Source: Psilocybe cubensis (taxonomy: Eukaryota). Taken from it: a stretch of DNA of 64,000 nucleotides. Numbering within the stretch: the first letter of the stretch is position 1; every line of letters begins with the position of its first letter. The notes beneath the pieces are model-generated. The model was not told the origin of the DNA. It was given only the letters and a program-made list of their open reading frames with translations, and did not search any database. Below, in pieces: positions 46,490-48,449 of this stretch. Location: the NCBI GenBank assembly GCA_017499595.2, contig CM039000.1, positions 3,782,001 to 3,846,000 on the forward strand, written 5' to 3'. The position numbers and the translations under genes are program-made.

Positions 46490-48449
46490 CTACGAACCAG
46501 TTCTTCGTATTAATTGGGTGATGGTTGAAAAGGATTGAGCGATCCTTGAGCGGCGGGAGGAAGTCGAGGTTCGAGATGATATAAGCTTAATTTGGGGCCC
46601 ATAGTGGTATATTGAATATACTTCCACCGCAATCGTGCGCTGCAAGTCCTGTGCATCCATTTTTGAAGACCCAGTATTGATTATAATTGATTTTCTATAA
46701 TTGTCGTCCCATTCATAGCATCGAGGGTTTGTGGCAGACCGTCTGAGTCTTGCATACGACATGCCGGGCATGTAACGCCTTGTGGGTAGCACCGCTGCCA
46801 CCCACGAATTGGATCGGTAGCAGGTTCGTATCAGCTGTAATGATCCGTTGGGAAGAGCGCGCAGTTTGTTTGAATAATTTTCTGGGTCATACCAGGATTC
46901 TGCATAGATTCCCAGATAAGCCTCAATTTTATCCTTAACAAAGCGAGTCATGAACTGCTTTGTGCAACCTTCCGGAAGGACTAGTATTGCACCTCCTGGT
47001 TTTTCCGGTGCTTTGATCGACTCAAATGTGCATACAGACTCCCTAAGAAAGGTTCAATACATAGAAGAATTTGCAAATGTAAGAAAAACATAAATACCCC
47101 GTCTCTTTATCTAGCGTAAAGTTGTTGCTAAAATAGAAACCTTCGCCTTGTGGGGTTGGTCTTTGAGCATTTAGCGAGGATGTAGAGGTTAGTTCAAGAG
47201 GTACAAACGTGCTAGGTGGATCGTAGTCCATAGCCAGGTTCTCCTCCATAGTCATAAATATGTTGAAAAAGACATCGAAACCTCCATCTGAGTTGAATAC
47301 GCCAACGTCTCCAAGGGTACAGTGACTCTCTTGAAGTTTTTGATCCATGCTGATGTTATTGAAGGGGTTCCATAGACAGATAGTATGAAGCGATTGTAAA
47401 AACATGTCTGGTGTTTCACTGAATCTAGAGCTACACATATACGCCTTGATGTCTTTGTGTAGGTCGTGCGGAAGCTGTATATCCTGCAGACGGCTGTCAG
47501 TATGTGTGGTAGTCATTCGTTTTGAAATTGTCCAACTTCAATTGTCACTGGCATGCAATGAACTGGGGGGACAACCACCCGTCGCTTTGTCGGGGTCTTT
47601 TGACCTGTCAATATAGATGTGTCAGTAATCGTTCATATGAGCACATCCGCTTCAACGATAATAAATCGTACCAGAGCGAATGGAGGTCCTCGATGACCAG
47701 ACATCATAATTTGTTGACAATTGAGACTGGCGCGCAGAATTTTGATGCCCATAATCTCGCCCTCGTGACTTTCAAAGGGGACAGCACTCAGTCAACTCGG
47801 CATTGAAAGAATCAAGATAATACACACTCGAAGGTGGTCGCCCTTCCCCAGGGGCATCAATGCGCCTAAGATATCTTCTCTATCTCGTTCTTCAACTTCC
47901 GAGAAGAATGTGACGATCAGGAATTTTATTATACAGTAAAAAACAACCAACTTTCAACTGTTTCAGGAGCACCACCTAGCACAGGCTTCAGTAGAAAAAT
48001 GTGTCAGTCCAATTCTTCTGTTCGACGGCAATTTCAACTTACCTCTCGGAAAACGTCATTTGATGTACTTGGAGGGCTAGATTTCACTTCTTTATATTAA
48101 TTGATACAGTCAAATATTGAGTCGATTTGAAGGATAAGCCTACCGATCACGACTTTCTTGATGTTGAAATTTGTTGTTGAGGAAGTAGAGTTGTTGTTCG
48201 TTGTCTGATTACCGCTTTCTGACACACTAAAGTTGTTGATTTCAGCGCGATTCCAGGCGTAAAATTGATATGCATACAGTGTTATATCTCCCCGAGGTGC
48301 TATAACTAAGGTTCGTCTCATGAGTCCGGCCGCCAACGTGACTGAGGAGTATGCAACTCACCTCCACCCACCGATAGATTTTCAGCTTCAAAATTCTCGT
48401 CGATGTGAACCTTTTTTGACGGGAAGAGTTTTCGTCGTAGCGTCAACAT
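46490..48449 (-). CDS. Type B gasdermin-like protein B3 with N-terminal amyloid-like extension
   Basis: Nine exons splice in frame from MLTLRRK through ..SVSESGNQTTNNNSTSSTTNFNIKKVVI.. and SRGRDYGHQNS (B1 has SRRAKYIEQNS) to the core DIQLP..LWNPF..CTLGDVG..FNIF..GGAILVLPEG..WY..NGSLQLI..W..RTIAVEV. Confidence 0.8.

Follow-up and report, generated by a model that had tools for sequence, protein, structure and literature searches.

Fungal cell death is divided between two kinds of control, with MLKL/HeLo executioners acting via amyloid templating and gasdermins via proteolysis (PMC8851545, PMC10197012). As summarised in the second of these sources, ~80% of fungal gasdermin genes adjoin the gene of their protease, and the characterised fungal and bacterial gasdermins are all cleavage-activated except RCD-1 (PMC10197012). 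On the templating side, a survey of ~500 BaMLKL homologues describes amyloid-like fragments in only a few of them, and its account of Basidiomycota gives no genomic co-localisation of N- and C-terminal motifs, with only NLR partners considered (Wojciechowski et al. 2022, PMC9815663).

Here, we analysed a stretch of 64,000 nucleotides from contig CM039000.1 of Psilocybe cubensis, hereafter the window. The locus shows a family with a predicted gasdermin fold, whose relatives are found mostly in Basidiomycota and which is recognised by no profile. Members of this family systematically have N-terminal extensions predicted to be disordered, with short conserved motifs in many of them, and at this locus the family adjoins an MLKL-like gene that carries a related double repeat.

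Searches with tblastn revealed two distantly related paralogue families in the window, with six copies of type A and three of type B; identity between A and B is 23-32%. The B copies and the type A neighbour of B3 are located as follows.

4006-5020, plus strand: core of B1 (tblastn)
24767-25699, plus strand: core of B2 (tblastn)
47537-46490, minus strand: core of B3 (tblastn)
3059-5020, plus strand: B1 gene, annotated as protein P0005 of 467 aa
49383-50560, plus strand: type A paralogue, head-to-head with B3

Each B gene forms a divergent pair with a type A gene, namely 2-1240(-)/3059-5020(+) for B1, 22267-23478(-)/23960-25699(+) for B2 and 49383-50560(+)/46490-48449(-) for B3, and the spacing from A to B in each head-to-head pair is 0.5-1.8 kb. 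The recurrence of these pairs with a short shared upstream region suggests a two-gene unit, which, by analogy with the two RCD-1 variants, could possibly function as a heteromeric pair. We consider the three B genes to form one unannotated gasdermin-fold family, of which the type A genes are more distant members.

Word-indexed homologue searches with B2, B3 and the MLKL-like gene (termed H below) matched only the genome's own proteins. Among the 79 six-frame ORFs of at least 110 aa in the window, Pfam recognised COX4, Rpn8-type domains, a zinc knuckle, a carboxylesterase and a SWIM finger. The region 8000-12000 is GC-rich (55-61% versus ~45% elsewhere) and contains a Pro/Ala/Gln-rich open frame of 602 aa on the minus strand. 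A Psilocybe cubensis genome paper, in its annotation passages, names FunAnnotate and mentions no RNA evidence (PMC8220353); if the annotated models used here derive from a FunAnnotate-type annotation of that kind, they are predictions.

The initial annotation of this region had described a gasdermin-like domain in the B proteins, which is borne out at the fold level by two models, four fold searches and an independent lead from the ESM Atlas. An AlphaFold model of P0005 (B1), built from an 85-row alignment, has a core mostly with pLDDT >90, flanked by disordered residues 1-125 (pLDDT below 50) and 436-467. With this model as the query, ranks 1-12 of the Foldseek search are all gasdermins, with a best E of 1.4e-4 for the RCD-1 pore, and 12 of the 15 top VIA-align matches are gasdermins, the best being 8sl0_A (Z 8.4, 164 residues, rmsd 4.2). 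Moreover, a core-only AlphaFold model of the foreign homologue P0024 (pLDDT 84, pTM 0.82) gave gasdermins at Foldseek ranks 1-11 and in 14 of the 15 top VIA matches, again with 8sl0_A (Z 9.6, 177 residues, rmsd 4.1); the best non-gasdermin was a MACPF protein at Z 5.8, and rank 50 had Z 2.8. In the ESM Atlas, the nearest clusters are unnamed and mostly from Basidiomycota. Bact_GSDM (0.80) and Gasdermin (0.76) are the closest clusters to which a Pfam family is assigned; they serve as leads only. The structure list includes bacterial, ascomycete and vertebrate gasdermin clusters. A gasdermin pore-forming fold is thus well supported for the ~300-aa B core on the basis of these predicted structures, and its membrane activity is a prediction.

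This relationship is confined to structure. Pfam gave no match for the core pieces, P0005 or P0008, and a profile of the 85-sequence family matched no PDB chain at E up to 10. Searching 1.84 billion representatives with a profile of the three B cores retrieved 566 proteins at E up to 1e-3. The fold alignments begin at residues 0-6 of the gasdermin chains and at residues 156-173 of the P0005 model. Known gasdermins start with the fold itself, and the extension of B therefore sits ahead of a complete fold.

Compared with HET-Q1 and RCD-1 of Podospora and Neurospora, the B proteins are predicted to share the same gasdermin fold (RCD-1-2 at Z 6.4-6.7 in addition to the Foldseek match with the RCD-1 pore), a short tail instead of a large C-terminal domain, and an organisation in multi-copy, fast-evolving gene families. 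Unlike these systems, the B family has no sequence-level relation to them and no protease gene recognised among the 79 window ORFs of at least 110 aa, and its nearest Atlas clusters belong mostly to Basidiomycota. The bacterial gasdermins (8sl0, 7n52, 7n50) are the best structural match to B, covering nearly the whole domain at the Z scores of 8.4 and 9.6; unlike B, they are cleavage-activated and lack an N-terminal extension.

After the fold, B1, B3 and the foreign homologues have a tail of ~30 aa rich in Ser, Arg and Lys. This bears on the earlier proposal that B proteins are activated by templated polymerisation rather than by proteolysis, of which the second half could not be upheld: the conserved tail resembles those by which microbial gasdermins are inhibited, and cleavage is compatible with all that was observed. 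The B proteins might accordingly be controlled by cleavage of a terminal inhibitory peptide, either this tail or an N-terminal pro-piece, with the protease encoded elsewhere. Such control would follow the precedent of the characterised microbial gasdermins other than RCD-1. However, Pfam detected no S8, CHAT/caspase or NOD domain in the 79 window ORFs of at least 110 aa, a screen that genes made of small exons could escape, and this differs from the close linkage of most fungal gasdermin genes to a protease gene. Additionally, the tail is disordered and undocked in both models, which argues weakly against an inhibitory role. We consider such control by cleavage very unlikely.

The B fold is preceded by 135-200 residues, predicted to be disordered, that are encoded by three to six small exons. 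That the B family has such a small-exon extension, as the initial annotation had proposed, is supported for annotated B1, for B2 and for the foreign homologues; for B3, it is plausible only. All three peptides cited in that proposal occur in the window and in the frames given for them. The exons that can be assembled for B3 are listed below.

48362-48449, minus strand: putative exon 1, with the ATG at 48449-48447 and the donor GTGAGT, part of an open 448-aa model
48151-48305, minus strand: putative exon 2, beginning after AG and containing the N/S/T-rich patch
47672-47768, minus strand: putative exon 3, phase 0 in and phase 1 out, like its B1 and B2 counterparts
47537-47604, minus strand: putative exon 4 of the open 448-aa model
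47098-47483, minus strand: core exon 5, with a conserved phase-0 acceptor, no ATG and the LWxP / GDVG / FNIF signature
46490-47042, minus strand: core exon 6 with the stop, its junction confirmed by annotated P0006

Joined in this order, the six exons give an open path of 448 codons, in which all introns are GT-AG (56, 382, 67, 53 and 55 nt) and the 382-nt intron 2 is an outlier. The open model needs the donor GTGATC at 48150, which is in phase 0 as in B1, and not the donor at 48143, which gives phase 1, but the next exon of the model (47768) begins in phase 0. By eye, the last three junction phases (0, 1, 0) are those of B1 and B2. In the B1 model, the first beta-strand (residues 138-144) is contributed by the counterpart of exon 4, and exon 4 of B3 presumably plays the same part. 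The patch in exon 2 (48243-48160) comprises 28 aa, of which 68% are N+S+T and 29% are Asn.

The annotated B3 protein (P0006, JR316_0004044) differs from this model. It is 267 aa long, its start is an internal Met, and both the putative 5' exons and conserved residues of the core are missing from it. In B1, B2 and B3 alike, the core exon has a phase-0 acceptor at the same residue, with stops upstream and no ATG. The lack of an ATG in the core exon, the stops ahead of its acceptor and the presence of conserved residues before the first Met together require further exons upstream. Alternatively, 48151-48449 may lie outside the B3 mRNA as a relic or untranslated sequence, with B3 using another start or decaying like B2. 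The absence of exons at 48151-48449 from annotated P0006 is in line with this, as are the length of intron 2 relative to its neighbours of 50-67 nt and the exon-to-exon similarity of B3 with B1 and B2, which is not significant (p 0.22-0.99; p 0.22 for exon 3 versus the B1 exon). On the other side stand the conserved residues and the acceptor in phase 0 after stops, together with an open, all-GT-AG path that has the junction phases of B1 and B2. We regard an origin outside the mRNA as unlikely, and splicing of the putative 5' exons to the B3 core as plausible.

The motif-bearing parts of the other two copies are as follows.

3313-3514, plus strand: alternative long exon of B1, of which the annotated model uses only 3481-3514
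24211-24293, plus strand: motif exon of B2, included in the annotated fused model P0007
24962-24964, plus strand: in-frame TGA of B2, replacing a Gly codon conserved in B1 and B3

Starting exon 3 at 3481 recovers the P0005 sequence exactly; this choice creates a 228-nt intron and skips the motif-containing part of the exon. Use of the acceptor at 3312 instead yields a 60-nt intron and 56 extra in-frame codons without a stop, including the motif, and the resulting B1 model is open throughout with 523 aa. The Thr run in the B1 motif is written with four different Thr codons and is therefore not a microsatellite. A separate extension exon of B1 carries, at 3649-3840 (+), a 96-nt tandem duplication (2.0 copies, 98% matches), so that a segment of 32 aa in the disordered head is present twice. 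In the B2 region, P0007 (809 aa) runs from B2 into the following type A gene and bypasses the TGA by an invented intron; B2 is probably a pseudogene.

The motif lies at residues 45-75 of the B proteins, away from the very N-terminus. It had been proposed that B1, B2 and B3 share a (V/I)xxS(G/F)Nx(1-2)TT core. The best local alignments among the three extensions do fall on this motif (residues 55, 45 and 56), but their scores do not exceed those of composition-preserving shuffles (p 0.13-0.80), which leaves the similarity of the shared motif no higher than chance. Moreover, blastn among the three B 5' regions gave no match, and Pfam found no informative domain in the extension exons or in homologues with long extensions. 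The shuffle and blastn results and the exon-to-exon comparisons (p 0.22-0.99) are what would be expected if the patch were ordinary low-complexity disorder, that is, a fast-evolving spacer or regulatory tail in which the motif is a by-product of N/S/T-rich composition.

The extensions of the foreign homologues also bear on such an origin. At least 30 residues precede the core in 70 of the foreign hits, and at least 60 do so in 53. A 25-aa window with at least 60% N+S+T was present in 9 of these 53 extensions, versus 1 of the 53 cores. TTTT occurs in 4 of the 70 extensions (0.19 expected) and SGN[VMQT] in 5 of 70 (0.92 expected). Jackhmmer searches among 73 extensions matched the B2 motif to P0008 at E 4e-9 and identified, at E 3e-7 or better, a motif common to five proteins that opens with a T-run followed by GN-rich strands. 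For four of the five seeds, the shuffled extensions gave no match. The B3 seed, however, matched one shuffled sequence, which shows that low complexity inflates such scores, and the B3 patch had no relative among the 73 extensions by jackhmmer. Thus, conserved motif families that are absent from their shuffles, enriched T-runs and the varied Thr codons of B1 argue against a by-product of composition, and the behaviour of B3 and the shuffle results for B1-B3 argue for it. More distant members of the family have other short N-terminal motifs, which appear similar to motifs at the N-termini of Agaricomycete NLRs.

We also considered N-glycosylation sequons as an explanation for the N-x-S/T patches. 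This reading was rejected, as gasdermin-fold proteins are cytosolic and no signal peptide was seen by eye.

The neighbouring gene H and its repeats are located as follows.

44052-45292, minus strand: gene H, MLKL-like (P0154, 336 aa, identical to JR316_0004043)
44445-44492, minus strand: C-terminal repeat 1 of H
44307-44354, minus strand: C-terminal repeat 2 of H

H and B3 share a strand, with H 1.2 kb downstream. Its match to Pfam MLKL_N over residues 57-187 is sub-threshold (E 0.0025, 17.7 bits versus a cut-off of 27), and the ESM Atlas returned one cluster at 0.90 in which 36% of the members carry MLKL_N. The two repeats are 46 aa apart, are both found by the HMMER profile of the H repeats described below, agree by eye in 15 of 28 columns and have an N-[VI]-x-T-T core, as in the motif described earlier for B. 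By analogy, an MLKL-type domain followed by two pseudo-repeats would correspond to the architecture of amyloid-controlled executioners. H, with two C-terminal pseudo-repeats after its sub-threshold MLKL_N match, appears to be a rare basidiomycete example of HET-S-type effector architecture, and it fits the rare class of BaMLKL proteins with amyloid-like C-termini described by Wojciechowski et al. (2022, PMC9815663). A cognate NLR of H was not seen in the window, where none of the 79 ORFs of at least 110 aa has a NOD domain.

We compared H with B by means of an ungapped profile for which only the H repeats were used. In B1 and B2, the top window of this profile fell exactly on the motif at all four widths; in B3, the motif ranked second at both 12-residue widths and was outside the top three in register at 16 and 20. 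The best B1 match is at 3335-3382 and the 12-aa B2 match at 24213-24248. In the six-frame translation of the window, the B1 motif was the second non-self match at widths 16 and 20, and B2 was tied for fifth at width 12. Shuffle p values against H were 0.036, 0.0064 and 0.012 for B1, and 0.017 (width 12), 0.16 and 0.39 (widths 16 and 20) for B2; B3 gave no signal (p 0.41-0.56). Smith-Waterman comparison with H gave p 0.0145 for B1 and 0.89 for B3. The N-[VI]-x-T-run core accounts for the signal, and the flanks without the Thr run gave none (p 0.40-0.92). After correction for nine tests, the best H-to-B p value is ~0.06. A HMMER profile of the H repeats, run on 2655 six-frame ORFs, placed the B2 exon third among non-self matches (E 0.97) and the B1 exon eighth (E 6), and B3 is absent among the matches listed.

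By sequence comparison, the motif link between H and B is suggestive in the case of B1 and weak in that of B2, with none for B3. The exact register that the H profile finds in B1 and B2 speaks against a motif that reflects N/S/T-rich composition, and the lack of signal between B3 and H (p 0.41-0.89) is what such a motif would give. Ordinary low-complexity disorder thus has evidence on both sides; we treat it as a serious contender, although on the whole a doubtful one.

The arrangement of H and B resembles in several respects that of HET-S and NWD2, in which adjacent genes encode an effector with a double motif at its C-terminus and a partner with a single motif at its N-terminus. H would provide the executioner, a four-helix MLKL-like domain followed by two pseudo-repeats, B carries a single related element near the N-terminus, and B3 and H adjoin on the same strand. 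Unlike in HET-S/NWD2, the partner with the N-terminal motif is gasdermin-like and not an NLR, with no NOD in B; moreover, the motif similarity is weak, absent for B3, and the motif is placed 45-75 residues from the N-terminus. The B3 patch is also Asn-rich, low-complexity and disordered, like the N/Q-rich prion-like domains of the yeast type. Unlike these domains, it is far shorter, has a high content of Thr and Ser, and is joined to a predicted pore-forming domain.

Taken together, the amyloid signalling motif claimed for the B extensions is suggestive only: the disorder of the extension, the motif families of foreign homologues and the double repeat of H speak for it, but the B3 patch has no matches above chance. 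The N/T-rich patch of the B extensions may be a prion-like assembly tag, and amyloid signalling by B proteins is plausible, unproven. The reading that we prefer, in which B is a gasdermin-fold executioner whose disordered head bears a homotypic, beta-prone tag, is a tentative one that falls somewhat short of probable. In this model, the N/S/T-rich patch in the extension would be the tag, and templated, amyloid-like stacking would concentrate the pore-forming domains. Alternatively, the tag might recruit the B pore-forming domains to the same seed as MLKL-like H, whose C-terminus bears a related N-[VI]-x-T-T-T element twice. B1 would represent the best-preserved copy and B2 a decaying one, and the tag of B3 would be degenerate or diverged to another partner.

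An extended version of this model would be a prion-like circuit, either NLR-free or NLR-shared, that links the two main families of pore formers in cell death and in which gasdermin-like B and MLKL-like H use the same templating motif, so that one seed would fire both or B would replace the NLR and trigger H. We regard such a circuit as improbable. If the tag of the B proteins does template, it would constitute a new way of activating a gasdermin and the first co-localised motif pair in a basidiomycete. In the open literature, our searches found no paper on a gasdermin with an amyloid motif, on templated activation of gasdermins or on the B family, and nothing relevant for Psilocybe cubensis together with amyloid. 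Even without templating, the family and its head-to-head A/B pairs offer testable material for the evolution of gasdermins.

Some homologues have NACHT-type, TPR or WD40 parts attached to the gasdermin-like domain, and others have a zinc finger or a kinase there; examples of such joined proteins are P0076, P0107, P0136 and the members of an Atlas cluster of WD40 proteins with 801 aa. In some species, the gasdermin-like domain may act as the effector domain of an NLR; alternatively, these joined homologues may be fused gene calls.
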